A program made the translations under genes and the position numbers. From Rhizophagus irregularis (lineage: Eukaryota), in contig NC_089430.1 of the NCBI RefSeq assembly GCF_026210795.1, positions 806,001 through 870,000 of the forward strand: a stretch of DNA of 64,000 nucleotides. The letters run 5' to 3'. Shown here in pieces: positions 1-28,600 of the stretch. The notes under the pieces are model-generated. The model was not told the origin of the DNA and did no database searches. It saw only the letters and a list, made by a program, of their open reading frames with translations. Position 1 is the stretch's first letter. Every line of letters starts with the position of its first letter.

Positions 1-219
1 AGAATCCGCTTTAAACAACACTTTGATCGACTTATGAAGGCGAGGAATTATACTTCTGATGAGATGTTTATCTCGGTAGCGGTAGATATTCGTGGTCTTG
101 GAGGGAATATTAAAATCTCAACAGTGAAAAATTTTTATAGTGGTGTTGGTCGTAGTACAGTTAGTACTGTTAATCAGATAAACGCATGGGTAGCTAGTTT
201 TAATAATAATGCGGAGTAG
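1..219 (+). CDS. 3' end of hypothetical protein (frame open from base 1)
   Basis: No stop from base 1 to TAG at 217-219; no recognisable motif. Confidence 0.4.
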   Translation, partial: RIRFKQHFDRLMKARNYTSDEMFISVAVDIRGLGGNIKISTVKNFYSGVGRSTVSTVNQINAWVASFNNNAE

Positions 220-1118
220 CGGGGAAGGAACTGCCAATATATGGGTTAGGGCCTGGCAGGCATTTATGCTTTATTTCTCCCTTGAAACAACCTGCTACTC
301 TATTGTTTTTTTATTTTCATTTTTTACTTAGCCGGCCGGCCCTTTCTCATGTATTACTTTGCAATAAAGAATGTTTTGAATGATTTTTAAAATCTTGCAG
401 TTAGTTATATTGGTAGAAACAAATTAGTTATAGATACTTTTCGTAAATGTAAGAGAGCAAAGAAATAACTTGATGCTGGGACTCGCACTAAATGGCCTAT
501 GATCCGCGTACTCCCTCCCTCTTTGATAGCATCATACATTTCGCTTACTACCTCCACTTTTTTATAAAGGAATCGAAAAATAAATCATTGTTTATGTAGT
601 TCTTTCATATGTAAATATGTATATCTTTGAACTCCGAAATATAACATCAGTAAAATCAAATGATGCATAAAAAAAGTATACAAAATCAATTAATCAAATG
701 ATGTCATCCTCATAAGATATATAATAATTAGTATTCAAAAAAAATGTTTCTTAAACTTCTTTCTTAAAATTTTAATCAATGTCTTCTTCTTTCATTGATA
801 AAGAAAGTTTTACCGATATCATATCTATCCTTCTCGTGATTTTTATCGCGTTCGTGGTCTGTGTGATTATTAAGATATCTGAATTTACTATTTGGATTAT
901 TACTTATCTAAGGCTTTCTTTTTGTCGCTTTTAGTTCTTTCCTATTACTTTCGTTCTTCTTTTGATCGCTATTACGTCATACATTGGATATAATATTAGT
1001 AAGGGGATTACTTATATCTTCAACAGAAGTAAGTCATTGGCTTGTTCACTTGTGTAACGTAAAGTCGTTAAAAACGGATTTCTCGTATTAAAAAATTTCA
1101 TACTCTATTCCAATAACC

Positions 1119-2045
1119 ATGGCGAACATGTCTAAAGTTTACTGCGAGAAAATAGATCTCAAAAATCTAGACCTTAAGAAGGTTTATACCTTCGAAGAGT
1201 TCGAGTACATAAACGACCAACTTAAGACTCGCACTATACAACTTAACGGAAAACCAGTTAACCTCTTCGAATACAAAAACGGAAAGTTAATCCCAATGCC
1301 TCAGACTCCATACGCAAGAGAAAAGGTTGTTGCCGAGATTGTAGGACAGTTGCGCAACTGGAACATCGAAACCCATCAAAATGGAGGCGTTACCTCTTCG
1401 CAAGGTGGCTTTGATTTTAATGTCGGGGGACAGAGAACAATTCGAGCACCCGACGTTTCTTTCACTCCAAAACAAACAGACCGCGGTTTGAACGCACTAC
1501 AAAATTGGACCTTCCAAGGTCAACCCTTCACCCCAATATTTGTTGTTGAGGTTGATTTTATTGAAAGTGAAGCACAATTCCAAGTATTTGACGATAGATT
1601 CAGAAATGAAATTTTTGCACAGGGAACATCTGTGGAGTTAGGATTTCTAGTTGACATCGGCCAAGATAATAACGGCCAACTGGTGGGAACTATCCATTCG
1701 TGGAAATGGTACGAAAATAGTAATGCTGTACGTCATTATGAACATGGATGGCGAAATATGGATACCAGGGTTAGCGGTCAGCAGATTCTTCCAGGATTCA
1801 TCTTGGATGTTGAGATGATTGAAGAGGCTATCTCACAAGTATGTTGTGACGATTTATCATTGATGATTTTATTTTAGATCTTATCATTTATTTATTTCAT
1901 CAAATGATTACAGCAAGATTCAGGTTCATATGATGATGTTACTAATATTCCTTGTAACGGACCTGGATGTACAGCAACTTTTACTAGTCACCACGCTTTC
2001 TTGAAACACTACCAAAAGGAACATGCGCTTAAACGACGTACATGA
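1119..2045 (+). CDS. Uma2/DUF820-like PD-(D/E)xK endonuclease with C-terminal C2H2 zinc finger; exons 1119-1838 and 1914-2045
   Basis: Motifs FEYKNGKLIPMP, IRAPDVSF, PIFVVEV and ILPGFILDV match Uma2. A phase-0 GTATGT...TTACAG intron (1839-1913) leads to QDSGSYDDVTNIPCNGPGCTATFTSHHAFLKHYQKEHALKRRT*. Confidence 0.75.
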
Positions 2046-2689
2046 CGTACACAACCGATTATAATGTGTCTTAATGTTGCTAATTTTTTATGTGCAGTAA
2101 TTTGATTATGTAATATTCATCTTGTAGAAATTTCGCATCATCTAACAACAATGCCATTTCTATTTTTCCATGTAATAATAGTAGTTTTCACAAGCCATAG
2201 GCATTATATAATTGCCCACTGATTTTTATTTTTCCGTAATGTGACTTATAATGCATATATATATTCGAATTTTTCCTATACTGTATTAAATGCAGATCAA
2301 TTATAGTACACACACAATTCAACTACTGCGCCCAGCGGTCAGATTTTTCATTTTGGTGTATTAAAGTATAAATAATAAAAAAAGGTTTGACCAGTGCCAG
2401 GGGAGCTAGGGTGATACCTGTGATACGATATACGTCATGCCATAAATCGCAATACCGCATGTAAATATAGCCACTATATAAATCCCCGATATGCTTGTAA
2501 TCGAATAAAAATGAATATGATATTTTATTATAATATACTTGCTATAAATTGCTATAAGTCTTTAAAACCGCTATAAATTATCAAATTCACTATAAATTGC
2601 TACAAAGTCCCTATATCCGTAAAATGGTTAAAACTAACTATTCTGGTTTAAATCCTGTAGTAGTGCAGGCGTTAAACAATCTGCAATAT

Positions 2690-5600
2690 AGCATAGCGAA
2701 CATCCCTATTTTATCACAATTTTGGCGATCATTTGACGATCATTTGTTGATCACTTTTCAACTTTATCACATCGCTATAATTAAATTGATTAGCTTAAAT
2801 TGAACGATTCTACATAATAATATTGATCAATATATACTCAAAATTTACAAACAGCATTTGAATTTACAATATATTGAATTTTATTAGAATCGCACTATTA
2901 TTAGGCAACTTTTACTAATAATAACTTTTAAAATGCCAATAATTAGCTTCAATCGGAAAATTTTACACAATAATACATGTTTAAATTTTACAAATAATTT
3001 TAGTATTGTTTTAATTTACTATGTATTAAATTTTATTAGAGTTGTATTACTATTGAATAATATCTATTAGTAATAACTTTTAATAAAAATAAATAAATCT
3101 ATTATAAATTTAATAAATTAATATAAATTATCATAATCTGACCATTTTTGATATAAAATTTCAAATTGGTTATCTATATTTTGTTCTACATTTTCCATAA
3201 TATCTTGTATATTTTCATCAATATCCTCATTTATATTGTTATTTGCATCTTTTTCAATTAAAGGCTTCTCATTATCTTTTAGTGGTGTATTTAATCTTTC
3301 TGTTAAACTATTAATATTTTTTTTTATTTCAGATGATAAATAATTAAAACAATGGTTACAATTACCATTATATAAAGTTAAACATTCTTTATGAAAGCCA
3401 TGCCCACAAATTAAAATAACATTATTATTAGGTAAATCTATATTATTATTATTAGATAGCAAACATTTTTCTGCATCACAAAATTTATCCTTATCATCAG
3501 AAGGTTTGCTTTTTGTATTCCAAGCCAATGGAAGGGCCTTTATATCAACATTAATTTTAAAGGTTGGAAGTGCAAAACTTGGATACTTATTATTATTAAA
3601 TTGATTTGTATTTCCTAAATTATGAAAAATTTCATCAAAAATAGAAAACAAAAACAAGGAAACTTTTTATTCTAAGTAATTTAATCTAACTTGAGAAATA
3701 ACTGGATTTCTTGAATTAACAAAAGCTTCTTTAAAAGAAAGGTTGCTATTTTTTTCAACATCAAAAATTTTGGCCTTTTGAATAATTTGTAATGCTGTAT
3801 TTGATTCAGCAGTTTGACTTCTAATAGAACTATGAAAATTTTCTACAAAATAATCATTAAAAATTGGCAAATGATTTTTTAAAATATTAGCCATTGGATG
3901 ATTATTTAATTTCCAATAAAACACATCGCTTAAAAACATAAGTGGTGCTTTATTATAATTATGTCGTCTTAATCTTTGAAATAATACCCAAATTCTTACA
4001 ACACCTTCTAAATATCCTTCAAAATATCCACTTCTAAAGAGTATTGTATATATATCTAAAGTAAGTGGTATAGAATTATCTAATAAATCAATCATCATTC
4101 TATATTCCATATCTTTAGAATTTCCAAAACGATGCATAACAACATTTCGAATCTTTTCCAACCATTAAATGTTAAATCTAAAATAAGATTAATTACAGTT
4201 TGTTTTGGTTTATGAGATAATATTTTTTTTTCTCCAAATAAATCATGGTATAATTTTTCAAAAAAAAAATGATAGGTTTGAAACAAAGTTTCTCTACTAT
4301 TTAATGAAATATGAAGTGGACCAATTATAGGAATTAAACTTAATATTTGTTCTGAAATACCAGATTTATTTCCTTTATTAATTCTTAATGTTATAGCTCT
4401 TCTTATATTTACTTGTCCTGGCCAATCAGCAACTACTGGAATAACATAATTATCTAAATAATTATATTCATTTTCTGACCTTTCAAATACTTTGAATAAA
4501 ATATCTAAACATTCTATATAATCTTTAGTACTATGCAATGAATGTAAGATAAAATCTACTAATTTGCTATTATTTAATGATCTTAATTCTTGGTAATTTT
4601 GAATTCGACCATCATAATCATGAACATTAAGATTTTCAACTCTATTTTCATAAGAATCTTCAATTAAGAATTGTTTCTATAATTCATTTTGTTCATAATA
4701 ACTTTTACCTATTTGCTTCATAAAAAAATCCTCAAAATTTTTAATAATTAATTTAAAGTCAATCCCTTTAGGATTATGTATTAAAATATTATTTGAACAA
4801 TATGGTATTGCTGCTATATTAGAATTAGAATTTAATAAAATTGTAACAAAATGAAATATATTATGTGTTTCTAATAATGTTGGCTTATTACGACGATGAA
4901 TATTATGATAATCATCAATATTTAAAATAAATATTTTTTCTATATTTTGCAAGCAGTAAATATCAACAGTTTGCTGATGCTCATTTGAAATAAGATTTTT
5001 TTGACGATCTACTGTCATTCTTCTTATTGAAAATCCTATATTTGCTAATGTATCAATAGATGATGATGATGCACCAGAAGTTTGTAAATATGATCCAATA
5101 TCAGCTTTAATACTATTAATATATTTATTATTAATACTGGCCAAAAAATAACATAAAGAAACTAATTTTTTCTTGTTATTTTCATTTGTTTTATCAGATT
5201 TAGTATGGGGATTAGTACCAATATATAATTCATCAAAAAAACCAACCAAATCTTTATCAGCTGCTTCTAACATTATTTTAAAAGTTGTTGGTTCATAAAT
5301 AGGCTTTTGATTTAATTTATGTTGATTATGATAAAGAATATTGGACATTTTTATTATCTTATCACTTAAACTAACTTCATTTGGAATTGTCATATGCTCT
5401 AAAATTTCTTGAAAATCCAATTCAAGTTGTTTTAATTCTTCTCCACTATAAAAAACATCATTTCTTAATATATAAGAATAATTACCAACTTGTAGAATTT
5501 TATCATCATTTTGTTTTTTTTTTGAAATAGGTGCTTTATATTCTTCAGTTTGTAAATATTCAGGATCCTTATCAGTTTTTTTCCTACACATGCTACAAAT

Positions 5601-6541
5601 TTCTGCAAACTCATCTAATCCTAATACTTCAATTAACCTCTTTGGAACTTTTTCAAGATTAAGTTTTTTTGATTGTTTATTGCCTTTTGATTGTGTTTTA
5701 TATAGTTCATGTTTTGGATGAGAACAAGATTTATTATATCCAAGATTATGAGTTTCATTAATGACATATCTATTATAATGAGTTTGACATAGTTTCATGC
5801 CAACTAAAACAATTTCTTTCATTGTTACTGGAATATCTATATTTTCAGTAATTATTCTAATTCTTCCCTTGCAGTCAGTAGAATGAAATTTACAAACATT
5901 TAATATGTTTTCTGTTTCCATTTTTTAATTTAAATTTTTAAATGATTTATTTTTCAAAAATAAAGAGTTTTCTTACAAATCTTAAGCTATTTATAAAAAA
6001 AATTAAAAAAAATTAACAATAAATTTAGTTATATAATTTTATTTGTTATCAAAATTCATAAAAAAAGTCCGAAAATTAATGTTTTCATATCCAAAGTTAA
6101 CTACCCAGCCGAAAATAGGCTAAATTTTTAATAATTAGAAAAATTAAAAAATAATTGATGATGTTGCAACACCCAGTGATCAGAATTTAACGATTTATAG
6201 CTTGTTGGATTCATCTCATCAAGACGAACATTTTGATAGTAATTTCATAAATATTTATGCAAAATTGATTGAGAAATGATATTTTGAAAATTTCTATTTA
6301 TTATATAAATTATAGTATTATAATTGCAAATACAATTTTATTCATAACTTTTGTGTTACCAAAAATTATACTTGGTTACTTCGGCCATTAATTTTAAAGC
6401 AGTTAAACTATGGGCTATAAAAGTTTCAAGTTTCGCCCGAACTTCTGTGGCTTCGCCCGAAGCCTTAAAGTCCGATATCACCTAATTTACTATATGATCG
6501 GCAAATGATCAACAAGGTGATATAAGCATGTTCGCTATGCT
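2690..6541 (-). mobile_element. TIR DNA transposon, 3852 bp, 14-bp TIR and 9-bp TSD (alternatively 13-bp TIR and 11-bp TSD)
   Basis: AGCATAGCGAACAT at 2690-2703 and ATGTTCGCTATGCT at 6528-6541; CTGCAATAT at 2681-2689 and 6542-6550; imperfect subterminal GATCATTTG repeats at both ends. Confidence 0.9.
3118..5921 (-). pseudogene. ~930-aa putative DDE transposase (DUF6589-like) with C-terminal RING-H2; two stops and one frameshift
   Basis: Four ORF pieces join: 5921-4677 and 4538- are in frame across TAG, a frameshift lies near 4160, and 3667/3657 are in frame across TAA. Motifs NIDDYH, ADWPGQ, IGPLHISLN, VENFHS and CDAEKC...CGHGFHKEC...CNHC. It is the only ORF between the TIRs. Confidence 0.7.
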
Positions 6542-8006
6542 CTGCAATATAGATATAATGGTGAAACACCAGAAATGTGGTGTTCTCGTATTTGTTATCC
6601 ATTTAAGAAACTTCTTGAATATAACCCAAAATACTTTTCGAAGAATGAGTTTATCCAGATGATTGAAAGATCATATATAGATGGGGAATTTAAAACTGGG
6701 AGACGCTCATTTCATATTTATTGCACTGTATGTGACTCCTTAGTAATTATCCGTGAAAATACCATTGAATGTGCAAATATTCACCTAAATGAGTGTATTG
6801 CTAAAACAGTCAAAAGGCGGATTGAATATTCTAAACCTGTACAGAAAAATGTGAAAAAAAGAGGAGTGCCAAGCCGAAATAGTGTATTATCGCTTAGTTC
6901 TGACGAGATAGATGAGATTTATCGAACATATTGTTTTACATTAAGTAATTACTGGACTAAATATAGTTATCATTATTTACCTGAAGATAGGAAAAGGGTT
7001 GTAAATCATTTAATTGAAAGTGCAAAAGTTGTCCAACAGGCTTGGAGGACTTTCAAGTTGAGACCTGAAACATGGGCGAAACAAGTTTGGAATATGGTAA
7101 GAAATGATGGTTCTCCTGACAAGAAGAAGTTTCTAGGTATAACTCCTTGCAAAATAAGAGTTCCTGATGATCGATATATAGACTATATATGGGATCCCAG
7201 TTATCTTCTGGCAGGAATTAATTATGGAGATAGAATTCAAGCTAAAGATATGCCTGCATATTATCAGAATCTTCCTATATTATATGATCATTATTCTTCA
7301 CAAAGCTGGGTAGAAAAGAAGAGAGAACAGTTATGGGAACGATTAAATAATGTAGCATACATAGTTGCTTTTATAGAATTACATCGGCAAGGCTATAGAA
7401 TTGTTGAATATTCAGGATGGAACTATATGTTAAAGTGGCTATCAAATCCTGAATATTATCGTATTGATAAATACCTCAACAATGGCAATGAAAACTTTGT
7501 TAGAAGTTCAGAATATGTACAATATAAGTGTAAATTGGCAGGCAAACATTATCAATATAATTTACTAGATATTGGCTATTATAAAACTGGAAATATTAGT
7601 ATTAATGGAGAGACTACTACTATAAATTTCTCAGATTTACATAATAATTGTGAGTATGTGCGCCGAATTTTCTGGAGCATAGATTCTTTATTAAAATAGT
7701 GTAATATATTTCATGTATAATTATTAGCCAAGCCCTTATGGCGCTTTGCAATATCTTTCAACCAAATATTAGTATTATGTATCTCTTGACTATGTCGAGG
7801 TCAAATATAGCTTATACTTTATTTTTTTGCACTATATAATCTGCATGCATGATCGCCTAGTATATATAATTGTGAAATGTACTACCTGCCAAATTTTTCA
7901 GATTAGTTCTTAACCCAGATCCTGGTTAAGATCATGCGCTTTCTGAAGATTGATATAAATTGATCCAAGGGGTTCTCCCATTCTCTTTTATAATCACAAA
8001 AAAAGA

Positions 8007-10463
8007 ATGTCATTTCACAGATCTCATCCAAGGCAGAGAAGAACATGTGAAGAACATAAAGCTGAGCTGGAAGAAGAGAACTATCATCTTCGTAGTGAAT
8101 TGCAGATAGAAGTTGATACTAATCACTAGAATGAGAGACAAATTAATCAACTGGAACGGGATTATGCCCGATGTGAGCAAGAAATTCAAGATCTCAATAG
8201 GGAGATAGAGCGCCTTGAAAATGCTTCGAAAGAAGAGATAGTAGAGTTAAAATCTGAAATCTCCAGCCTAAAAAAGCAACTATATCAAGCTAAGAAGGAT
8301 ATTTGTAATAATGAAAAACATATTTCTAGTATAGAAAATCAGTTAGTAGATTCTGAGGAACAGGTAGAGAAATTGCGATATCGGATCAGAACCATCTCAT
8401 CACGAAAAAATTCGCCAGAACGAGGGAATTCTCCAGACTTGTATAATCCTAATATTAACATAGAAATGGCTACTATCACAGAACTAGCAAATGCTATAGA
8501 TGGTTATCTGAATAATACAACAATAGGTAGAGAAATCTTAGCTGATCAAATAAAAAAGGCGACAAGGCAGATTTGCCGAAAAGAGAATAATTTGCATCAG
8601 GATTTAGTCCGTGAGCAACGAAGGCGATATGATGCAGAGGCTGAGCATGATAATGAAATTATACGAAGGCAAAATGCTGAAGGAGTGGAACAAATGGTTA
8701 TTGCTGACCTTTATCAGTTGCGGACCAATGCTCAAAATCAAGTAAATAGAATGTTAGACAATATAACAGGAAAGCGAACCCGTATTGGTATATTGCTACA
8801 GGAAAAATTTGCCTTACAATTGCTGTATCAGCGAAATGCCCATCACTTACAGCGAAGTAGAGGGAATATAGGTCTGTTAGAATTTAATCGTGACAGGCTC
8901 TATGAGCGATACGAGAAATGGAAAAATAAGACCCAAGTAGAGCGACAGAATAATTTAAATTTGCAAGGACAAATTTTGGCGCTTCAGAATAATCCACCTA
9001 ATTAAGTAAACATGGCAGGAATACCTCATCCATATTTTGACTGGGATGATAGTATCCCAGACTTTCTTGCGCAACTTAGACTAGACTTGCAAAATCGGGG
9101 AATAGATCCAGCAGGTGCAGGGGGCAATGGAAGAGCTCAGGCACTAGGATATTTAAGAGCATGTATGAGAGGAAGAACCTTAGAATGGTTTGATGAAGAG
9201 ATTACTACAAAGACAAATTGGGAATTAACTAATCTGACTGATGGTACAGGACAAGCCAATTTGGTAGCTGTAAACGGGCGTACAGCTATTCAGATCGGTG
9301 CTGATGGATTAAATGAGGCACTCGGACAACCTGGAAATGCAATAGTAAAATTAAGAGCTGTAGAAGGTGTATGGGACGAGGACTGGCGCATAGCAGGAGG
9401 TCGTCCTACTAATCTTCCTGTTAATTTACCGAATGCTGGTAATGGAACTACAGTAGTTGTAGCTGGTATTCGATTTGGTCAAGCCGTATGGTGGCTAAAA
9501 ACTCATTTTCCTACAGTAGAAGAGGAACTTCGGGATTTGATGTATGGAACAATCAGAAAGGGAGACATGACTATAGATGAATTATATAGAAAAATATTAC
9601 GAATAGGTAGACGAGCCAACTATAGACCTGAAGAATTACGTAGAAAGTTCTTAGATGCTTTACCACTTTTATGGCTTGAAAAAGCTGAAGATATTGGTGA
9701 ACATTTGCCATTAGATGAATTAGCTAAAAAGCTTTATGAGATAGAATTACGCCAAATAGCTAGACATAAAAGAGATAGAATATCTGATCTGCTAGTATCT
9801 AATCGAACATCTCGGCAAATATATGAACCTTCACCTGTTTCAGCCTCACAACAGCATGGAATATCTTTAGAAGATATGCAAAAAGCAATCCAGAATGCAT
9901 TAGCACAGCAAAAAACTGAATACCAGTCTTTATTAGAAAAACAAAAAGCCGATTTCCAATCACAAATGGCCCAGCAAACTAAAAAGATACCTCCACCAGT
10001 TCCTCCTAAAAATATGGAACAGCTTCTTGATACATATGAAAGCGCTAATCCTTTCCCTGATACACTTACTAGGGAAGAAATAATAAGAGTGGTCGCAAAA
10101 GCTTATGGGCCACCTCCTAAACCGCAAAAGCCAGAAAAGTTGCAATCATCTAGAATCGATAGATTAGAGTCAAAAATAGATGAAATTGGTCAAATGACAT
10201 CTAAATTTGGTAGGATATCACTTAATGATCAATCTCGAAAGCCTTTTTATTGCAGTAATTGCGGACAGGAAGGGCATAAGAAAAACAATTGCCCAAGGTT
10301 AAATCCTGTAGCTAAATCCAATTTTACTCAATGTTACTATCCTCAACTTCCATCTACACAGCCCTAATATACGCCTCCAGATTCAGATAATGAGGAAGAT
10401 GGTTATGATAAAGTAGAAAATGCGTGGTATTATACACCTGAAAAAAAAAACAACTACCACTAA
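8007..10463 (+). pseudogene. Gag-like polyprotein (coiled-coil N-terminus, Ty3/Gypsy-like capsid, CCHC knuckle) with three in-frame stops
   Basis: ATG 8007, ORF 8373 and ORF 9012 share one frame, with stops at 8127 (TAG), 9003 (TAA) and 10365 (TAA). Capsid-like IPDFLAQL...LRACMRGRTLEWF and IRKGDMTIDELYRKILRIG...RRKFLDALP; knuckle CSNCGQEGHKKNNC (CX2CX4HX4C). Confidence 0.8.
10445..10451 (+). promoter_or_regulatory. Putative -1 programmed ribosomal frameshift heptamer A-AAA-AAC
   Basis: In X-XXY-YYZ register with the gag frame, 3 sense codons before the gag stop; a -1 shift enters the open protease frame. Confidence 0.55.
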
Positions 10464-11110
10464 ATGATATGTTACCTCTAGAGTCCAGTCAGCCAAAAAC
10501 ATATGATGAATTATTTCCAAAACTTTTACCGGCAATGCGAAAAATGTGTCAGTCTCATACAGTTCAGAAGAAAGAATCAATATCAGATGAGTTGTTTTCC
10601 TCATTACAATATCTGAATGCTAAAATAGATGATTTAATGATCTCTAATTCTTTTTTAGATAGTGCGAGTGAGTTTGGGGGAGCGAATGATGCAACAATTA
10701 ATGCTCTTGGGTGGAAAGCTGATAAGCCATCGGACTTCGCAATAAAAGGTAATTCCAAACACATTACCGATTCATTGGGATGGTTTACTGATGTACCAAT
10801 CAGTATAAAGGATAAGGATGGTAAAACTGTCACAGCTACTGGAAATTTTACTCATATTGATAATGGAGAACCTGAACCAATGTTATGTTTAGGTATGACA
10901 TGGATTAGGAAAGTTCAAGGTGTCCTCGATCCAAATAAAAATCAATTCCGAATGAAGTTACATGGGAAAGCTTACATTATCCCAACTTTTAGCAAAGCTC
11001 CAGAAGTTGAAGATCCGCCAAAAGAAAATCAAAAATCAGCTAATTCTTCTAATCCGACTAGTAAGGAAGACTTAAAAAAAAGTGTGAAGAGCTTGAAAAG
11101 CGCCTCATAA
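10451..11110 (+). CDS. Retropepsin-like aspartic protease, probably expressed as a Gag-Pro fusion
   Basis: FLDSASEF (D-S/T-G-like active site), a flap-like beta region, and LCLGMTWIRKVQGVLD matching the retropepsin ILGxDWL motif. It lies in the -1 frame directly after gag. Confidence 0.75.
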   Translation, partial: QLPLNDMLPLESSQPKTYDELFPKLLPAMRKMCQSHTVQKKESISDELFSSLQYLNAKIDDLMISNSFLDSASEFGGANDATINALGWKADKPSDFAIKGNSKHITDSLGWFTDVPISIKDKDGKTVTATGNFTHIDNGEPEPMLCLGMTWIRKVQGVLDPNKNQFRMKLHGKAYIIPTFSKAPEVEDPPKENQKSANSSNPTSKEDLKKSVKSLKSAS

Positions 11111-11175
11111 AGACTGAAGAAATGCTCTATTTGGCCTTAAGTACCGGTAAATTTCTTGCTGATACATGTGAATCC

Positions 11176-11694
11176 TTATATAAGGGGGGTATTAGCTGTT
11201 AAACCCTTAAGCTTTTCACCACGATTAATTAGATTTTTAAGAAGAGATTCTGCCCTGTCTTCTCGGGATGTATCAGACGAATTATCAGAGGAAGAGACCA
11301 TGCCATTTTTGTTATTTTTTTCCACTATACTAGTTGCTTCAGTAACCGGCTTCTCATCTATTTTAACCTTCTTTTTTCGACCATTCTTTTTTGGAATATC
11401 TGTAGCTGGAAGGGATATAGATGATACTGCTTCAAGAGTCTGTTCTGACTTATCAGATTGGGAATTTTTATCCAAAGCAAGCTGATCAGAAGAAGATAAA
11501 ATAAGTCCTTGTTGGAGACGTTCACTATTGTTCCATATTTCATAAATACGCCGAGCACCAACATGGAATTTTTCAGCCATTATTTTTGATGCATTGGGTA
11601 TCCTGCCTCTGGATTCTCTAATTTCCTTGATGTCGGCTTCTGATAATGGGGTGGCATTGGATCGATAAAATTTTTCATGGAGATGGGTGACCAT
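11176..11694 (-). CDS. Small protein with N-terminal helix-turn-helix-like motif and basic tail
   Basis: PLSEADIKEIRES...KIMAEKFHVGARRIYEIW resembles an HTH; KKNGRKKKVK is NLS-like. Confidence 0.6.
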   Translation of the reverse strand: MVTHLHEKFYRSNATPLSEADIKEIRESRGRIPNASKIMAEKFHVGARRIYEIWNNSERLQQGLILSSSDQLALDKNSQSDKSEQTLEAVSSISLPATDIPKKNGRKKKVKIDEKPVTEATSIVEKNNKNGMVSSSDNSSDTSREDRAESLLKNLINRGEKLKGLTANTPLI

Positions 11695-11744
11695 TTTTTA
11701 ATTAGAATATATATGCAAAAAAAACTACCAATAATTTTTTCAAT

Positions 11745-11960
11745 ACCTTTCAATATGTATTAATATTTCTGGTGATCAATACATATCAATGCCTTTCAAT
11801 ATGAATCAATTCCTTTCAATACGAATCAGTGCTTTTCAATACATATCGGTATCCTTCAATGCATATCAGTATTCTCTTTCAGTGCGCATCAATAAGTATA
11901 AATGTGTCTCAATACCTTTCAGTACGCACCAGTAATCTTTTTTTCAATGAGTATCAATAA
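11745..11960. repeat. About 8 copies of a 20-bp-period repeat (consensus ~CTTTCAATACGTATCAGT) between divergent genes
   Basis: gcctttcaatatgaatcaat / tcctttcaatacgaatcagt / gcttttcaatacatatcggt / atccttcaatgcatatcagt occur at exact 20-bp spacing from 11791, with looser copies on each side. Confidence 0.75.
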
Positions 11961-12048
11961 GCATTAGTTTTGCCAAAAATAATCCACTTTCTTACAAGTT
12001 TAAGGCCTTAGCTGATTTTTTTTTGCCTAAAAAAAAAATACCAATAAA

Positions 12049-13071
12049 ATGCCCCAGATCCGTACCTTAAAAGATCTGAATAATGGTAATAAACTTGGGG
12101 ATACTCCAGCTAATTATTATCCACCCAGTCGAACAGATCTTGAAGAGCAACTTTCTTGTGCAAAAAAAGATCATGAAGTAGCTATTTATTGGGGAAGTCA
12201 GTTTGCAGATAACTATGATGTCTTAGATAGAAAAAACAAGCGCATGCAGGATGACTTGGATAAATCCAAAAATGAAAATGAAAAACTTTCCGACTGGGTG
12301 CACCAACTTGGAGAAGAGATAAGACAATTGCATTTAGATAAAAATGAGCTTATGCTTCAGATTACTCGCAAGGATATTTCTCTTGCAGATGCTGAAAGTA
12401 AATTCTCTATAAAATCGGAAGAGACGCAAGCCTTCCAATCCAAAACAAAGGAAGAAATACAGGCTCTCCAATCAAGAGTAAAAGAATTAGAGCAGGATGC
12501 TTCTTTAGCACAAGATGAGATATCAGAAATAGTTTCTCTCAAACGCAAATTGGAACTGAAAAATGTGGAACTAACTACTGAAAATATTGGTCTAAGTTTG
12601 GCAAAAGATGACTTAGAAGACTTATTGACCGAAAAAAAAGATGAATTGGCACAGATAAAAGATGATTTAGTCATAGCGCAAAAAGCATTAATAGAAAAAG
12701 ACTCCCTCCTTCAAGAAGCTAATGATCGTTTAGCTGAGCAGATCTCCCAAACATCTAGCGAGTCTGAAGTGCTTGGAGGTGATAAAGGACTGGAGAAAGG
12801 TATCGAAATCACTAGTCCTAAAACAACCTCAGATTCACCTTATTACTTATTTTTTCAGTATGCAATCATCTTCATAATAGTATTACTAATCATATGCATT
12901 TTATGGTGTGTATTCTCTCGTAGAAATTCTTCTTACAATGAAGAAAAAAATATTTCGAACTATAAAATACCCTTAAATAGAAATCAGAGTTATGCTTTCC
13001 CAATCCGATACACAGAAGAACCAAAAGACAGGACTGCCTCCTATGAAACTTCGTCTTTTGGATATGGATGA
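12049..13071 (+). CDS. Coiled-coil protein with a single C-terminal transmembrane helix
   Basis: About 200 aa of heptad-like sequence, then YYLFFQYAIIFIIVLLIICILWCVFS followed by RR; no N-terminal signal peptide. Confidence 0.75.
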   Translation: MPQIRTLKDLNNGNKLGDTPANYYPPSRTDLEEQLSCAKKDHEVAIYWGSQFADNYDVLDRKNKRMQDDLDKSKNENEKLSDWVHQLGEEIRQLHLDKNELMLQITRKDISLADAESKFSIKSEETQAFQSKTKEEIQALQSRVKELEQDASLAQDEISEIVSLKRKLELKNVELTTENIGLSLAKDDLEDLLTEKKDELAQIKDDLVIAQKALIEKDSLLQEANDRLAEQISQTSSESEVLGGDKGLEKGIEITSPKTTSDSPYYLFFQYAIIFIIVLLIICILWCVFSRRNSSYNEEKNISNYKIPLNRNQSYAFPIRYTEEPKDRTASYETSSFGYG

Positions 13072-14042
13072 GGTCACTAAACATGAATCATCCCGAAATA
13101 TTGGACATCCACACACGTCAAATGACCAAAAATAGGCAAAAAAAATGGCGCAAATCGCATAAACTATTCGCAAATTTGTATAAACTATTTACAAATAGTA
13201 TAGGTTAATTCGTAAACAGCCAAAAACAGCCAAGAATAGCCAAGAATAGCCAAGAATAGCCACTGCTTTTCGCGCCATTTTTTTTGCCGATTTTTAGCAT
13301 TTCGACCTGTGCCAGCAATGACATGGCCTTTCAGCATGTTGGTCACTGGGAGAAGTGGTTCAGGTAAGACTAATTTACTTGCGAATCTTGTTCTTGGTAA
13401 TAAGGATGAATATGTGCAAAGAGGGAAGAAAGATGGGTCTCGCTACATCAAATGTGATGATCTAATTGTTTGTGGGTATCATCCTGATGAACCAAAGTGG
13501 GCATATGTGAGATACATATATAATATGATTTCGAAAGACCCAAGAGCATCTTACTATGAGAATATTAGTTTCAGTTATATTCCACCCGAAAGAATTCCTA
13601 GTACAAGAACATTCTCACCCGAAAGAAGTAAATTATTTATTTTTGAGGATTTGTGCCTCGCTTCAGATCATATACAAAATCGTATTGGTCAGTTTTTTGG
13701 GAATGGGCGTCACCGAAATATTTCATGTATATATATTACGCAAAGTATCATAAAGTCGATACATTCAAACGTGAAAACTCGACTCATTTAGTATTATTTA
13801 ACTCTGGTAGCAGTATCCAAGACGTGTCTAAGATTGTTGGACGATATATTGATGATGTAAAGGGTGCATCTATGGTTATTAATAATTACCTTCGAAAAGG
13901 CGAGTTTGTTGTATTTGATCTCACTAGGCCAGAAGATGATCCTCTTGCAATCCGCCTAAGGTTTGACACTCCACTGAACTTACAAAAGGAGATAGAGGCT
14001 AGGCAGAAGTGCAAGAAAAAGAGTGCCTCAGCTAATGAGTAG
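13043..14042 (+). pseudogene. A32-like (FtsK-HerA superfamily) DNA packaging ATPase, interrupted by a MITE and a 1-bp frameshift
   Basis: After MITE removal: MKLRLLDMDEVTKHESSRNIGHPAMTWPFSMLVTGRSGSGKT (Walker A), FIFEDL (Walker B), GRHRNISCIYITQ (arginine finger/sensor). A frameshift near 13745 leads to KYHKVDTFKRENSTHLVLF. Confidence 0.85.
13112..13311. mobile_element. 200-bp MITE, CACA...TGTG ends, ~40-bp imperfect TIRs, 3-bp TSD CCA
   Basis: CCA at 13109-13111 and 13312-13314; excision restores the ATPase frame; internal AGCCAAGAAT tandem. Confidence 0.85.
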
Positions 14043-14092
14043 AATCTAACTTCATAGATACTAACTTTTTTTCGTAATTATAAAAAATTAGA

Positions 14093-15223
14093 ATGGGGGA
14101 ACCAGTTATTTATATCGATCCTCAAAAAGCTCATGATTTAGACTGGCATCTTGCTTTGCAAAAAATATATTATCGTCCTGAAGGTCTTTATCAAAATGTT
14201 AAGGGATTATGGGATGCTTGTAAAAAAGCCGGCTACAGCTTTCCATTTATTGATATAAAAAAATGGCTTGAGGGCCAAGCAATGTATCAAATTTTTCATC
14301 CTTCACCAAAGCATATACCTTATGCCAGTTACTCTAAAATCACAAAGCCAAATACTGTACACCAATGTGATTTAATCGAAATACCATATGATGAAGATGT
14401 GGATACAGATTTACTAGATGATGGTCCAATATATTACTATGTACTATTGGTTATAGACTGCGCGACTAGATATAAAGATTTCGTTTTTTTAACATCAAAG
14501 AGCAGTGAGGAAGTTGCGGAAGCATTTAAGAGTATATATAATAATCCCGATAAGCCTCTCAACTGGCCTCGAAAATTGCAATGTGATAAGGGCACTGAGT
14601 TTATGGGATACGTAACTTTATTAATGGATGAACATGGCGTTGAGATCTGAAGAATTATAGCACGTTTCAGACATACAAGCTTGGCTATGGTCGACCGTTA
14701 TGCTGGATTATTCAAATTAAGAGTTTTTAAAAATCAGTATTCAATAGAGTTTCTCCTGCCTACTGGTAAGCGCTGTAGAGAATGTGAGCGGTTTGCAAGA
14801 AAAATTGTTGATAATATGAATGATAGCCCAACTCGATTGATTGGGATGAGTCCTAATGACGCCACAAAACTTGAGCAGATATATTCCAAACCATCAGTAA
14901 AATATAATCGCCCAATAGGTGTTGATGAACCACAACTACCAAAGGGTACTACTATCCGATTTTTGCTCGCTCCTGGAGAGTGGGAAAATGATCCTTTCGA
15001 ACGACGCAGAATAACAGATCCGATATGGTCTCCCAGCCTGCATAAGATTCGGAAAATTGTTGTTGGAAAGAATCCTCCAATGCCTATTTTATATTATTTA
15101 GATGAATCAGGACCCCAACGCCCTTTCGTGAGAGAACAATTGATGCATATTAAGGAAGAGCCCATGTTACCTCCTAGGTGGGTATTGGGAGATAACCGAA
15201 TACGTACAAGGCGCTCCTTATAA
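14093..15223 (+). pseudogene. Polinton/Maverick-type retroviral-like integrase with one in-frame TGA (14648)
   Basis: LQKIYYRPEG N-terminus, HQCDL, LVIDCATRY, PRKLQCDKGTEF, AMVDRY, and C-terminal DPIWS...LYYL...RPFVREQL. The two ORFs share a frame. Confidence 0.85.
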
Positions 15224-15713
15224 AAGTTTCTAAGTCTACTACACAGTAAGGGATTGTAATAAGGATTACTCCTTCCCGATAGCATAACGCTTTCTTTTTC
15301 CAATCATGCCAGATTTGTGCGTCTAGATTCATCTGACCTTGTGGGTGAAAAAAAGGGACGATTTGGTAATGTTGATTGCCACTATATTCAAAGGCCAAGC
15401 CTAACTCTTCATTGTATCCATCTAGATGTAATCCCTCCAAGAATTTAGGCTTTCGGGGTGGAAATTTTTTATGTAATAAATCCTCAAATATATACCGGCA
15501 TGTTTTTTCTGGTATATTAGGACAAATATTGCACCATCTATAATTCTGTTTCATATTTTTATATGGCGCCTCCCATTGATGGCCTTTTTTACATGCCCAT
15601 AAATATGTATTAGAACTAACTTTAGCTAAGCATCTTCCTTCACGCTTTTGGGCATATGCCAAAGCTTTAGTGTTAATATCATCTTGCATTTTATAGGTAC
15701 AATAGAATATCAT
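15174..15713 (-). CDS. Zinc-ribbon plus PD-(D/E)xK (Vsr/DUF559-like) endonuclease
   Basis: WACKKGHQW...WCNIC zinc motif and LHLDGYNEELGLAFEYSGNQHY nuclease motif, a type common in large DNA viruses. The likely start is MQDD near 15689. Confidence 0.7.
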   Translation of the reverse strand: MIFYCTYKMQDDINTKALAYAQKREGRCLAKVSSNTYLWACKKGHQWEAPYKNMKQNYRWCNICPNIPEKTCRYIFEDLLHKKFPPRKPKFLEGLHLDGYNEELGLAFEYSGNQHYQIVPFFHPQGQMNLDAQIWHDWKKKALCYREGVILITIPYCVVDLETFIRSALYVFGYLPIPT

Positions 15714-15941
15714 GTACAGAAATTTGCGATAGTGATTATTAGCTCTGGACTAGTTTGGTCAGAAGAATCGATCTGGATATATGCAAATCCAGATGCAAGT
15801 TCGAAAGTAAAATTAAACTTGGCTACTACTATTGCATAAGTAAAAAAATAAATATCGCCAATATTCTTAGCAGGAAGTGGCAATTTCGGCTAAGAGTACT
15901 TGACAATACAGCTCAACAATCTTGTCTATATATTCGCTCTT

Positions 15942-16409
15942 TTATATATTATTGATATTATCAAGTAGATCGATATCTTTTAACAATTTTTTCGTTTGTT
16001 TATAAAGATTTTGCCATTGTACATGAAATTTGTTTCGTAAGACAGAAGACTTAATAAGACAGGGAAGAATACTTGTAAGATTATTTATATGGGATTTGAT
16101 TACTGCATGAACATTTGCAATTTCTTCTCCTGCTGTAATCCAATCATAATACAGAGTATAAAGAACTGTATGAATACGGGTTATTTCTTGTTTACTCCAG
16201 TCTAACCGATATTTTATAAAATTAAGATCTTCACAAAGTTCCCTTTCTTTTTGCTTTAAAATAACTCGAAATGCTTCAAAATTCCATTGATGATTTATAG
16301 TAAGACAGGAATATAGTATATCTTTAATCTTGAGATTACTAAAAATTAATTCAAGCAGTTCGGAACAAACAAGTGGGCTAGGTCCAGCATTTTTTTGCGC
16401 AAGAAGCAT
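15942..16409 (-). CDS. F-box-like protein with helical C-terminus
   Basis: SELLELIFSNLKIKDILYSCLTINHQW matches the F-box pattern. Confidence 0.6.
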   Translation of the reverse strand: MLLAQKNAGPSPLVCSELLELIFSNLKIKDILYSCLTINHQWNFEAFRVILKQKERELCEDLNFIKYRLDWSKQEITRIHTVLYTLYYDWITAGEEIANVHAVIKSHINNLTSILPCLIKSSVLRNKFHVQWQNLYKQTKKLLKDIDLLDNINNI

Positions 16410-16800
16410 GGTGTATATGCAAGAAAGCAGTATAAAATAACAGAGAAACTAGCAAAGTTCAAAATAAAAATTCTATATAATTTTGAGCGAATATGCTTGC
16501 TAGCGCGGGCAAAATACTGGGTCAGTAGTAGTACCCCAAAGTAATCAATATAATAATGCCTAAAAGTAATCGATGTAGTAGTACTCCAAAGTATCCCAGA
16601 GTAAAAACTATACAGGAACAAGAGCTAGAAGGTGAAAACAAGCAAGTTTATGGTAACCCACTCAAGCAGAATTATATATAGGAAAGAAAAGAGAAATTTC
16701 ACTTGAGTGGCCTACCACCGATAGGCAGGAAAGAGACCGGAAAGGCAGAAAGGTTCAGGAGAATACACGAAAAAAGATATGAAAGCGATATAGCCTGAAC

Positions 16801-17070
16801 CAATTCGACACTTCGCATAAGCCTCACACAGCAATCAGAAAGGGCATATAAAGGGCGGGATTGCAAGAATGGGCACAAATTCGGCACTTCGTGCTTCATC
16901 CTTGGCAATCAAAAGGGTTATGGAAGGCAGGATTGCACATCTAGGTCACCAATTCGGCACTTCGTGCCTCATCCCTGGCAATCAAAAAGTGAGGGAATGG
17001 ATTGTGAAATGTCTTCGGCAAATAGATGGATTGCAAATTCGGCACTTTGTGCCTCATCCGGTAATCAAGA
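16801..17070. repeat. Four spaced copies of AATTCGGCACTTCGTGCCTCATCC...GCAATCA
   Basis: Copies near 16802, 16878, 16951 and 17036 (spacing ~73-85 bp); the core contains the GGCAC-TTC-GTGCC hairpin. Confidence 0.8.
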
Positions 17071-17110
17071 AATGGCAATTGAGAGGGAAGCAATTATGTG
17101 AGGGTGTTCC

Positions 17111-17310
17111 CACAGGTCGAAATGCTAAAAATCGGCAAAAAAAATGGCGCGAAAAGCAGTGGCTATTCTTGGCTATTCTTGGCTATTCTTGGCTGTTTTT
17201 GGCTATTTACGAATTAACCTATACTATTTGTAAATAGTTTATACAAATTTGCGAATAGTTTATGCGATTTGTGCCATTTTTTTTGCCTATTTTTGATCAT
17301 TTGACGTGTG
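17111..17310. mobile_element. Second copy of the 200-bp MITE, inverted, 3-bp TSD TCC
   Basis: Near-identical reverse complement of 13112-13311; TCC at 17108-17110 and 17311-17313. Confidence 0.85.
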
Positions 17311-17900
17311 TCCGGCACCAGAACAGTATCACGTGACTGGCACAGTAAGGCGCAGTATAGATTCGCTTAATTTTGCCCAGCACTATAATCCATATTTTTT
17401 GCATAAATTTCAGGATGCAATATCTCGGCATCCAGGCATCAGATTCATGCGATCTTAGCATCATTGGAAAACTCTCAACGTCCTCTTTCAAACGACTACA
17501 ATATCGCATGAAACCAATCACAGGATGCCAAGATATTCCGCCCTAAAGATCGGCCAGAAATTATACCATAGTGCCGGCCAAAATCTGATCCGCAAATTAA
17601 CTGCGCCATCTGACGATTTTTTTACACTATTTCAGCAACTTAAAAGGCCAGCAAATGGGCCACACCCTCGACCTCAAATATGGCAACCAAAAGGGTCATA
17701 GGGTGGAAAACCCAACTTTACTCCTATACAATTATTAAAAGGCTTCAGAATGGAAAAACAAACCTCTGCCCTGTTTAGCGACCAAATAGTCACAGACCAG
17801 TGAAAACAGATGGATAGCAATAAAGCATCAGAAGAGGCATAGACACGTAAAAATAAGTAAGTATGCATCAATATCTATAAGTAGGTATCACTATGGTGTA

Positions 17901-17960
17901 AGTAGATAGATTAAGTAGACATCACTATAATTATAGTGATGTCTACTTAATCTATCTACT
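17901..17960. repeat. Perfect 60-bp palindrome; putative right terminus of the large element
   Basis: AGTAGATAGATTAAGTAGACATCACTATAA|TTATAGTGATGTCTACTTAATCTATCTACT, preceded by degenerate TAAGTAG.CATCACTAT copies at ~17857-17894. Confidence 0.9.
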
Positions 17961-18972
17961 GAAGAAGACATCTCCATCTACCCTTTAATAAACCAAAAGC
18001 TTGTTTTACTTTGATTCTTGTTTGTGAATGTTTACGATTGAAATATGTTTGTTTTTGAATTAATCCTCTACCTATATCTTTATAAGGAACTATTAACCAA
18101 CTAAGATTCGGATATCCTCCATCACCTAATATGTATTTATTATTAAAAGTTGTTACTAAATTATTAAACTTATTATATAGATTAGAATTTACTAAAATTC
18201 TACTATCATGTGTAGAACCTGGCCAACCAACACATATATCTAAAAAACTTTTTTTATGGTCAACTACTGCTTGTAAAACAATTGAATAAAATCCTTTTCT
18301 ATTAAAATAATCTACAGGAAATAGATGAGGTGCTTTAATTGGTATATGACTACCATCAATAGCTCCAATAACATTAGGAATTCTTCCAGTACCTTTGAAT
18401 CCATTTGTAATTTCATTAATTTCTGATTCTGTATTTGGAAAAACAATTTTTTCTGCTAGAAATTTTGTAACTATTACATTAATAAAATCTCTTAATGCAT
18501 AACTAAAAGTTGATTCTCCCATTCCAAACCTATTACCTATAGACCTAAAACATTCTCCAGTAGCAAGAAACCATAATGATGCACCAACCTTTTGTTCCCA
18601 TGCAAGTCCAACTATACCAGGTTCTGTAATTTCTCTTCTTAAATGTGGTATTATTTCACAGCATAACCATTCAAATGTAGACCTGGTTAACCTAAAATGT
18701 CTTTTAAATTCAAAATCTTGCATATTTAAACATATTTCATTAAACCAATACTGAGATATTGATCTATTTAATCTTCTTAAATTGATGCACTCATTAATTT
18801 CTATTCTATTAAGTTGTAAATATAGCAAGTTTAAAGGTAAAATGTTAAAATTTTCTTCCTCTTCTTCTTGTTCAGTTTGATAAGTAGCAATTAAATTTTC
18901 TTCAAATTCATTATATTTAATAAGTATAATAATTGTTAATATACAAATTGAAATTTGGAATTCCCTATTCAT
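17961..18972 (-). pseudogene. PIF/Harbinger (HARBI1-like) transposase, 3'-truncated
   Basis: FKRHFRL, GAIDGSHIPI, YFNRKG, WPGSTHDSR, ILGDGGY and RIKVKQAFGLLKGRWRCL (catalytic E position is K). The stop codon is supplied by the palindrome. Confidence 0.9.
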
Positions 18973-24399: not shown

Positions 24400-24989
24400 C
24401 AATCTCAATTTTATTAATCGAAAAAAATAAGTAGTACCAAGAAAATTCTCAGAAAATTTTCTTGATGATCGCAATTAATTGGATTTAAATTTAAAAATTG
24501 TCAATTGTAATTTCAATTTCAATTTATTTATTAATCAGCCTTTGAAAAATAAGGCCCATCAATTTCTATTTTGAATTTAATTTTAATGATTATTCTGTTA
24601 TATTAACAAAATTGATCAATTTGTGCTTTTTTCTAACAATAATAGTTAGATAATATAAAATAGATAGTCATAACGCTATTATGTAATAATAAAAGGGTGA
24701 TTTCTAATTAAACTCAATTCCAATTGTTTATTTGTAAATTCTAATCGTTTGATTGTGACGTAAATCATGATCATCTTCCGATTTCTGAAACTATTTTTCA
24801 CAAATATATACTGTATTGATATTGAACCGAAATTGATGGACTGAAATTTAAAATGGCCCCATGATTTTTTAGAAAACAACTTATTAGCATAGCGGCCAAT
24901 CACAAAGATAGCACTGAAAATATAAGATCAGCTGATACTAACAACTGTGATCTGTATATGGTGATTAAGACCGATTAGAATCACGATTG

Positions 24990-25215
24990 TTAAGAAAAAT
25001 TCTCGCGAATTTTTTTTAATACTGCTTATTTTAAAGTTTAAAGACCGATTAGCAAACTGAAATCACAATTTCAAGAAAAATTCTCGCGAATTTTTCTTGA
25101 TACTGCTTATTTTTAAAGTTTAAAAACCGATTAGTAAACTAAAATCACGATTTTAAGAAAAATTCTCACGAATTTTTCTTGATACAGACTGATTAGTAAA
25201 TTGAAATCACGATTT
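24990..25215. repeat. Array B: three ~82-bp units with the same palindromic core
   Basis: AAGAAAAATTCTCGCGAATTTTTCTTGATACTGCTTATTTTAAAGTTTAAAGACCGATTAG repeated; it is the reverse complement of array C units. Confidence 0.8.
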
Positions 25216-25394
25216 TTAAATATGATTATCTATATTTAACTAACTTTAATAATGATTGATCATTTTGTTAGAATTGTTAATTTTAGATACATAGTATGAT
25301 ATTATCGATACTTTTGCAATTGTAACGGATTTTGAAATCTATTATAAAATAGTTTTTTTTAGTTAAATAAATCATTTCGACTTTTTAGTAACTT

Positions 25395-27939: not shown

Positions 27940-28600
27940 TAAGAAAATTCGCGAGAATTTTTCTTATTGGGATTTCAATTTACTTAAACTTTAAAATGAG
28001 CAGTATCAAGAAAAATTCGCGAGAATTTTTCTTATTGGGATTTCAATTTACTTAAACTTTAAAATGAGCAGTATCAAGAAAAATTCGCGAGAATTTTTCT
28101 TAAAAAATCGTAATTTCAATTTATTTAAACTTTAAAAATAAGCGGTATCAAGAAAAATTCGTGAGAATTTTTCTTGAAATCGTGATTTCAGTTTACTAAT
28201 CGGTCTTTAAACTTTAAAATAAGCAGCATCAAGAAAAATTCGCAAGAATTTTTCTTAAAAAATCATAATTTCAATTTATTTAAACTTTAAAAATAAGCGG
28301 TATCAAGAAAAATTCGCGAGAATTTTTCTTGAAATCGTGATTTCAGTTTACTAATCGGTCTTTAAACTTTAAAATAAGCAGTATCAAGAAAAATTCGCGA
28401 GAATTTTTCTTGAAATCGGGATTTCAATTTACTAATCGGTCTTTAAACTTTAAAAATAAGCAGTATCAAGAAAAATTTGCAAGAATTTTTCTTGAAATCG
28501 TGATTTTAATTTATTTATTAGTTAGTTTTTTAAACTTTAAAATAAGCAATATCAAGAAAAATTCGCGAGAATTTTTCTTGAAATCGTGATTTCAATTTAT
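27940..28600. repeat. Array C: about nine 68-85-bp units with the palindromic core TCAAGAAAAATTC-GCGA-GAATTTTTCTTGA
   Basis: Cores near 27941, 28008, 28077, 28149, 28230, 28304, 28385, 28468 and 28553. Confidence 0.85.

Follow-up and report, generated by a model that had tools for sequence, protein, structure and literature searches.

In the current classification of viruses, Gag shells go with reverse transcription and A32 motors go with jelly-roll shells, and a lasting, selected union of Gag with an A32 ATPase would amount to a capsid swap between major virus lineages. The Polintons of Glomus have been published without a major capsid protein (MCP), penton or cysteine protease, and no MCP had been found for them by 2021 (PMC4028283 supplement; PMC7805220). 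Mavericks have been reported as expanded in Glomerales only (PMC11952901), and a PolB-bearing MELD virus has been named from Rhizophagus. Also, the legend to Fig. 5 of Starrett et al. (2021) mentions 'Matrix/Capsid/NC/Pro' genes on a PolB-bearing Polinton-like element; this legend names no host, and it is the only place in the main text where 'Gag' appears.

The locus described here lies in a 64,000-nucleotide stretch of the Rhizophagus irregularis genome (contig NC_089430.1, positions 806,001 to 870,000; hereafter the window, whose numbering we use) and resembles Polintons/Mavericks (Polintoviricetes) in having a stand-alone rve integrase beside an A32-like ATPase. Together with these two genes, one DNA stretch contains a Gag (CA, CCHC) and a retropepsin-like protease, and the genes of the element use both strands. 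All the genes of the original prediction were recovered, position and strand included, while its boundaries had to be amended: the Gag frame starts at 8007 and the right side of the element extends to ~17960. The copy is decayed, with stops in Gag and integrase, a frameshift in the ATPase and two inserted MITEs, in a window crowded with nested insertions (MITEs, MULE-like, hAT, Harbinger). With a probability of about 0.6, we read it as a decayed integrated DNA element of arbuscular mycorrhizal fungi, derived from a Polinton/Maverick, in which a Gag shell likely replaces the jelly-roll capsid.

The Gag frame (8007..10463, plus strand) comprises a coiled coil of ~330 aa, the capsid domain (CA), a spacer and a CCHC nucleocapsid. 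It is interrupted by stops at 8127, 9003 and 10365, with the gag ORF at 9012-10364; in L009 and P0185, the coiled coil through the capsid domain is a single open frame. An AlphaFold2 model of Gag residues 1-253 reaches a mean pLDDT of 66 and leaves an 85-residue insert of the CA N-terminal lobe (68-152) without confident structure. In a fold search with this model, ranks 1-36 of 48,161 chains were all retroelement or retroviral capsid proteins, with the CA-CTD of PEG10 as best match (Z 10.5, rmsd 2.6, 82 residues); Foldseek returned the same leading names, but no match at E <= 0.001. The ESM Atlas clusters nearest to Gag are Retrotrans_gag (0.93), and the CCHC knuckle is found at E 5e-4, slightly short of the Pfam cut-off. 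Sequence searches against solved structures gave nothing for Gag, protease or ATPase. On the strength of the model and these matches, the assignment of a predicted retroelement capsid fold and a CCHC knuckle to Gag holds. Gag is under purifying selection, as the dN/dS check across copies of CA has a median of 0.26 and a maximum of 0.51 (42 loci). Within the family, identity has fallen to 25-35%, yet the Gag end and the terminal protease have been retained, and the RT motif was found in 0 of 289 Gag-family proteins. The C-terminal 640 aa of a 1,379-aa Gag model (P0321) were considered as RT or PolB and discarded: they have no Pfam match and look like an unrelated insertion.

At the end of Gag, a slippery site (A-AAA-AAC in an A-run, 10441..10451, plus strand) predicts a -1 ribosomal frameshift into the protease (10442..11110, plus strand), which lies in the -1 frame in the window and in 10 of the 11 loci showing the slippery site. 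No strong hairpin was found downstream of this site. The protease is retropepsin-like: its active-site triplet is D-S-A in the window and D-P-G, D-S-A or D-T-A among homologs, and, with no Pfam match for the window ORF, the assignment comes from the homolog P0016, which falls among gag-aspartyl-protease clusters (TM ~0.8; 0.95 by features), and from two distant family members matching Asp_protease_2 above cut-off. The conserved frameshift and active-site Asp suggest a regulated maturation of particles. The protease ends at a terminal stop with no RT beyond, and continuation into RT was seen in none of the 31 models that reach the protease end. A second A-run (11074-11081) accompanies a 45-codon frame (11065..11202, plus strand) in -1 register to the protease, with blastp matches in P0103, P0448 and P0404; if translated, it could be a short protease extension in place of pol.

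A coiled-coil protein whose single hydrophobic segment comes late, at residues 272-290 (12049..13071, plus strand), holds a conserved place just upstream of the ATPase. It is included in 14 of 52 ATPase models, and its hydrophobic segment is also present in P0349 and P0362 and missing in nine spliced or partial models. The A32-like (FtsK/HerA) ATPase (13043..14042, plus strand) matches Pox_A32 above the Pfam cut-off; it is split by the MITE insertion 13112-13311 and by a frameshift close to 13744. The stand-alone integrase (14093..15223, plus strand; stop at 14648) is a separate gene paired with the ATPase, outside any Pol polyprotein; its rve match (E 4e-7) is below cut-off in the broken window copy, and its third catalytic position is D, not E, in the window's clade. 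On the minus strand are a 172-aa ORF (11176..11694), an endonuclease-like ORF (15174..15713) with PHROG HNH/homing endonuclease matches, which is fused to the C-terminus of the integrase in a sister clade, and an ORF with a weak F-box-like N-terminus (15942..16409), which adjoins the nuclease in Gigaspora too (P0097, 78%). The genes are there, but two of their earlier labels were not confirmed: the 172-aa 'HTH' has no Pfam or PHROG match and no homolog among the proteins compared, and the 'F-box' stands at E 0.086. The membership of a multi-copy ORF, U (6551..7699, plus strand), whose 5' end at ~2622-2689 is detached by a 3.85-kb MULE-like insertion, is uncertain; in L009 and L041 another ORF sits upstream of gag.

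As originally proposed, no RT or RNase H follows the protease and no LTRs are present, which is borne out by the frame scan, the homolog models and the repeat search. Indeed, none of the 101 stop-to-stop frames of the window (at least 58 aa in 1-18000, at least 100 aa beyond; 101/101 scanned) matched RT, RNase H, PolB or capsid families in Pfam, and no direct repeat longer than 23 nt was found between the flanks. The double jelly-roll major capsid and the penton are likewise without a match in these frames, a negative at the level of Pfam, which divergent capsids can escape. No adenain-type cysteine protease was matched within the window, where a retropepsin is present instead, and pPolB was found neither in the window, where the left end of the element is missing, nor in the 28 long ATPase models scanned. 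Rfam families and tRNAs gave no match in the sequence.

On the right, the element runs into a non-coding end region (16800..17900), in which direct repeats occur internally, along with another copy of the MITE (17111-17310) and an imperfect palindrome (17370-17584); the repeats of this region are likewise found ahead of the F-box gene in P0097. It is followed by a perfect 60-bp palindrome (17901..17960; z -8.4), at which a Harbinger transposase ORF (17956-18972, minus strand) ends exactly and across which summed contig depth drops ~threefold in three of four runs; this palindrome is likely the right terminus. Polintons have long terminal inverted repeats and target duplications of 5-6 bp; in the window, no left terminus, left partner of the palindrome or target duplication was found. 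Loose ends at 6418 were rejected as left terminus, as they fall within the end of the MULE-like insertion 2690-6541. A 201-bp inverted repeat (13111-13311/17111-17311) might be taken for a pair of TIRs around ATPase and integrase. We rejected this reading because the arms have their own internal inverted ends and different 3-bp target duplications, and because a MITE-free joint (13108>13312) is present in all four runs; the left arm is thus a 200-bp MITE (13112..13311) with a 3-bp target duplication, a secondary insertion in the ATPase. Immediately left of gag, a relic of the 5' end of the integrase and of the sequence preceding it lies in inverted orientation (7931..8004, minus strand) and forms with 14067-14137 a 75%-identical inverted repeat flanking the gag-to-ATPase block. 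The inverted relic is also found in L009 and L041, and in L042, whose Gag is closest to Paraglomus, an integrase on the same contig stands head-to-head with gag, open to the contig end.

The homologous loci that we read cover 1.0-3.5 kb each, none of them a complete copy. Gene models, whose fusions depend on false introns, bridge gag/pro to coiled-coil, ATPase or integrase genes in R. irregularis (P0332), G. margarita (P0088, P0097), Cetraspora (P0379, P0381) and G. rosea (P0106/P0109, probably one locus), and two others (P0259, P0264) bridge coiled coil, ATPase and integrase. In one R. irregularis annotation, an integrase lies at most 10 tags from 3 of 12 gag loci among the matches listed (P 5e-5 under a uniform null, 0.005 under a clustered null), and the other nine have none nearby among these matches. 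Neighbouring gag/integrase accessions are GES89163-66/GES89170, GES81414/GES81409 and CAB5201965/CAB5201964, the integrase of the latter two belonging to a clade of merely ~44% identity; GES92388/GES92579 and GBC23467/GBC23361 are far apart among the matches listed. The linkage spans Glomerales, Diversisporales, a Paraglomus-like lineage and two distant integrase clades, and genes of the family are present in Gigaspora, Cetraspora, Acaulospora, Diversispora and Paraglomus, a range wider than Glomerales. Gag, protease, membrane coiled coil and ATPase form one block, with constant order in both arrangements. Viral contigs, genome contigs and phages were also searched and yielded no relatives of the element. 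The linkage in several genera supports gag-pro as a stable, selected part of an element with ATPase and integrase: it is neither restricted to the window copy nor housed in normal LTR-RT elements, and is not a nested relic.

Could gag-pro nevertheless be what is left of an LTR retrotransposon that inserted into a Maverick and was then replicated passively with it? Nested insertions abound in the window and many gag loci have no integrase neighbour among the matches listed, but the same linkage across distant fungi and integrase clades, dN/dS of ~0.25, the retention of Gag end and protease despite deep divergence, and the lack of any RT or LTR remnant make this very improbable, and we regard it as largely refuted. 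Slightly less implausible, though still improbable, is a retroelement devoid of RT, whose RNA would be packaged by its own Gag, reverse-transcribed with the RT of host Ty3 elements and integrated by the enzyme that the element itself encodes. In its favor, Gag, protease and integrase make up the gene complement of a retroelement from which RT is missing, another slippery site is found where pol would begin and the window copy has no pPolB; against this stand the absence of LTRs, the genes on both strands, the pairing of a separate integrase gene with an A32 ATPase, and an end that is a palindrome.

A more serious contender, if an unlikely one, is that a Polinton without a capsid has long kept Gag-protease as a passenger, which forms RNA-carrying shells as Arc and PEG10 do or blocks competing retroelements in the manner of Ty1 p22; the ATPase would then act in replication or segregation, and the element would spread within the genome only. 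Linkage and selection fit this equally well, the CCHC knuckle is a binder of single-stranded nucleic acid, domesticated Gags are among the top fold matches, and other passengers are aboard (the nuclease, the F-box-like ORF). However, the block from Gag to ATPase keeps its order in both arrangements, frameshift and active-site Asp are conserved, and the retention of an A32 ATPase without a shell is hard to explain.

We favor the Polinton/Maverick-derived element with a Gag shell, its Polinton affinity resting on the ATPase-integrase pairing and the published placement of the ATPase. The proposal that Gag and an aspartic protease replaced the capsid/maturation module gains from the stability of gag-pro and the absence of RT; that Gag functionally substitutes for the capsid is what we infer. 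In this scenario, the integrase would insert a linear DNA copy; Gag would be made along with a minority of Gag-protease through the predicted -1 frameshift, and would build a shell, perhaps at a membrane, that the protease matures. The ATPase, probably anchored with its membrane coiled-coil neighbour, would then pump the element's DNA into this shell, and a protein-primed polymerase, supplied either by complete copies or by sister Polintons, would copy this DNA. We know of no precedent for a Gag shell filled by a pump, and only tentatively, at somewhat less than even odds, do we extend the reading to an old lineage of integrating dsDNA viruses that swapped its jelly-roll virion module for Gag-protease and whose A32 motor fills a membrane-associated, protease-matured Gag shell with DNA. 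If true, this would be a chimera of jelly-roll DNA viruses and reverse-transcribing viruses, and would solve the 'missing capsid' of Glomus Polintons, since a replaced capsid would account for the fact that published searches found none. The open question of capsid-less Glomus/Rhizophagus Polintons becomes testable, and particles, should they form, would be a candidate route of DNA movement in arbuscular mycorrhizal fungi.

The gene set had been thought to match no described group. Among the papers searched, we found none that describes or discusses the family in its text, but the claim is weakened by the legend of Starrett et al. (2021): compared by that legend alone, their element has Gag-like and retropepsin-like genes in common with ours, whose window copy is without PolB, and it likely belongs to the same family, as prior art. 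By description only, our element of ~10-11 kb also compares with P_Gi1.1/Polinton-1_GI (11,954 bp) and P_Gi1.2 (11,019 bp) of Glomus intraradices, in the same host group, the latter listed with an ATPase and without MCP, penton or protease. With Ty3/Gypsy LTR retrotransposons (Metaviridae) and retroviruses the element shares the capsid fold, the CCHC knuckle, the retropepsin and the -1 slippery site between Gag and protease, but it differs from them in having no RT, RNase H or LTR, an integrase outside a Pol polyprotein, an ATPase and genes on both strands. Domesticated Gags (Arc, PEG10, PNMA2) likewise have the capsid fold without RT, and PEG10 also has a frameshifted protease, but here Gag is carried by a mobile element that is multi-copy and encodes an integrase of its own. 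Finally, where Polintons have jelly-roll capsids and a cysteine protease, the element in the window has Gag and a retropepsin, in a copy from which pPolB is absent.

Our reading of this element depends on whether its gag and protease genes belong with its ATPase and integrase, as the original prediction held, and four lines of evidence indicate that they do: bridging gene models, flipped layouts, locus-tag neighbours and selection on Gag. In the window, a single Gag frame on the plus strand (8007-10463; coiled coil, capsid, spacer and CCHC) is interrupted by stop codons at 8127, 9003 and 10365, and the corresponding frame on contig L009, another copy, runs unbroken from the coiled coil into the capsid domain. 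The protease (10442-11110, plus) lies in the -1 frame relative to Gag and is followed by a 172-aa ORF (minus), a coiled-coil protein gene with a single late hydrophobic segment (plus), the ATPase and integrase genes (plus), and nuclease and F-box-like ORFs (minus). The labels 'HTH' and 'F-box' first attached to two of these genes are still unconfirmed.

Mis-spliced models in which gag or pro is joined to the coiled-coil gene, the ATPase gene or the integrase gene occur in Cetraspora (P0379, P0381), R. irregularis (P0332), G. margarita (P0088, P0097) and G. rosea (P0106/P0109, probably a single locus). The coiled-coil gene forms part of 14 of 52 newly listed long ATPase models, and gag/pro of 3. 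On contig L042 the integrase stands head-to-head with a Gag whose nearest relative is from Paraglomus, a flipped layout also found in P0097; an inverted integrase relic, from the start of the gene, lies left of gag in the window (7931-8004) and is common to the window, L009 and L041. Together these show that, with respect to the integrase arm, the gag-to-ATPase block can face either way. Of 12 gag loci in a single R. irregularis annotation, at least 3 lie no more than 10 locus tags from an integrase, and the other nine have none that close among the matches listed (up to 15 members per cluster); the chance of such proximity is 5e-5 under a uniform distribution and 0.005 if both genes are restricted to one fifth of the genes. 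Other annotations add three neighbouring pairs and two distant ones. A quick tree divides the integrases into three clades; gag-adjoining ones occur in two of them, none being seen in the integrase-nuclease fusion clade. Finally, dN/dS in the Gag capsid has a median of 0.26 and a maximum of 0.51 over 42 comparisons, which share the window copy as reference and are hence not independent.

The Gag itself has a retroelement-type capsid fold, a structural call based on fold matches, Foldseek ranking, ESM Atlas clusters and distant family members. A model of residues 1-253 (pLDDT 66, built from 37 sequences) was compared with 48,161 chains, and ranks 1-36 were all retroelement or retroviral capsids, led by the PEG10 CA-CTD (Z 10.5, rmsd 2.6, 82 residues); Z values of this size are not decisive by themselves for helical models, though the list is homogeneous. 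With Copia and Arc capsids the alignment extends to about 150 residues and the rmsd is 12-13, because the lobes are misplaced in the model. Foldseek ranked the same proteins at the top, but none at E <= 0.001; the ESM Atlas search returned Retrotrans_gag clusters, and 14 of 46 distant members scanned matched PF03732 (E <= 0.001). Within the N-terminal lobe, about 85 residues rich in Asn, Gly and Ala (residues 68-152; 9213-9467) form an insert that has no defined structure in the model, yet is retained across the whole family. The window is fungal, its named Gag homologs all coming from Glomeromycota with up to 98-99% identity in Rhizophagus irregularis, and divergence within the family reaches 25-35% identity (best 150 of 379 representatives, E <= 0.001). 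A lysine pair lies near the end of 26 of the 28 Gags chosen as complete.

The ATPase is Pox_A32 in Pfam, and the integrase is an rve protein weakly matching retroviral integrases in the PDB. Its third catalytic position (14687-14700 region) is Asp in the window's clade and mostly Glu in the two sister clades. In one sister clade (P0273, P0283, P0150) the integrase C-terminus carries the nuclease as an in-frame fusion; in the window the nuclease is a separate gene on the opposite strand. A divergent ATPase clade (P0373-P0376) carries a C-terminal extension of 150-190 aa, whose end may resemble small Polinton proteins.

The right terminus is probably a perfect 60-bp palindrome (17901-17960), since a truncated Harbinger transposase frame (17956-18972) ends there and summed contig depth is lower beyond it in three of four runs; we take this frame to be without its usual tail. 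No matching left end was found within the window. Multi-copy cover begins near 2499, and a multi-copy ORF left of gag (6551-7699, plus) is interrupted by a 3.85-kb MULE-like insertion (2690-6541; terminal inverted repeats, 9-bp target duplication), whose minus-strand ORFs gave no transposase in Pfam and a single weak HEPN match. A different conserved ORF, with no family match, lies upstream of the integrase relic at L009:63-740 and L041:71-547, and also in P0049 and P0108. The 201-bp inverted repeat is in fact two MITE insertions within the element, near-identical 200-bp copies (13112-13311 and 17111-17310) with CAC ends and 3-bp target duplications; their copy cover is very high in the public runs. 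Counted from 7917, the element is 9.6 kb long once secondary insertions are subtracted; counted from 2499, it is 11.2 kb.

Elsewhere in the window lie a Uma2-family (PF05685) nuclease gene with an apparent second exon (1119-2042), where one run holds a single identical contig over 513-2547; three hAT-like transposase loci (29665-31374, 36442-38395, 45912-48458); and Crinkler N-terminal matches (PF20147) in two frames (40705-41151, 50407-50748). Mutually inverted arrays of ~80-bp repeats (24987-25221, 27977-28623) enclose 3 kb with a coding-like 45-bp tandem repeat, possibly a foldback-type element.

In the accessible text of PMC8502044 and its preprint, Gag/retropepsin appears solely in the Fig. 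5 legend, and that of preprint 10.1101/2022.05.25.493380 mentions a MELD virus of Rhizophagus that carries a PolB fragment; from the two it is quite likely that a PolB-bearing relative was already drawn in 2020-21. From the portions available, the Glomus Polintons are entered in PMC4028283 with no MCP, penton or protease, PMC7805220 describes the MCP as not yet found at its writing, and preprint 10.64898/2026.06.19.733378 groups Glomus and Rhizophagus ATPases with Maverick-Polintons, 'gag' being absent. The available passages of PMC11952901, PMC11075540, PMC8647823, PMC5751038, PMC11296320, PMC3671162 and PMC6431247 hold no description of the combination. The idea of an undescribed group is weakened, the element having probably been glimpsed once; the literature searched gave no account of it in running text (most subscription papers, Repbase and supplements may contain one).

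What is observed is which genes the element carries, how they are linked and that they are conserved; from this we infer, at a probability of about 0.6, how the element would work. A predicted frameshift would set the output of Gag and Gag-protease, the protease would mature the shells, the ATPase, anchored by the membrane coiled-coil protein, would load DNA, and the rve integrase would perform integration, replication falling to a pPolB encoded in full copies or supplied in trans. The protease is retropepsin-like, through its homolog P0016 (ESM Atlas features and structure) and Pfam matches in 2 of 46 distant members scanned. Of 13 loci examined for the A-run, one ends early and one is too divergent for the filter; the other 11 show the site, and in 10 of these, as in the window, the protease follows it in the -1 frame.

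The main rival, in which Gag is a passenger that carries RNA or acts in restriction, is a minority reading that we still consider seriously. A retroelement borrowing an RT fits poorly and is improbable. Scanning of 101/101 window frames gave no match to RT, RNase H, PolB or capsid families and the window has no LTRs, so the original observation of neither RT/RNase H nor an LTR pair holds. Neither of two RT motifs occurs in 289 Gag-family proteins; among 31 models reaching the last protease strand, 29 stop within 71 residues and two continue into the coiled-coil gene; and the window frame behind the second frameshift has only 45 codons. Protein models and window DNA suggest no hidden RT in the family; members represented by protein alone may have one behind a second frameshift. 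Gag-pro as a nested relic, also a poor fit, is the most remote of these alternatives.

The element we favour, Polinton-like in its working and equipped with a retroviral structural module, departs from Polintons in having no cysteine protease, and neither pPolB nor a TIR pair is seen in the copy read; strict Polinton membership is therefore not established. It is not an LTR retrotransposon, and it is real, ancient and present in multiple genera.
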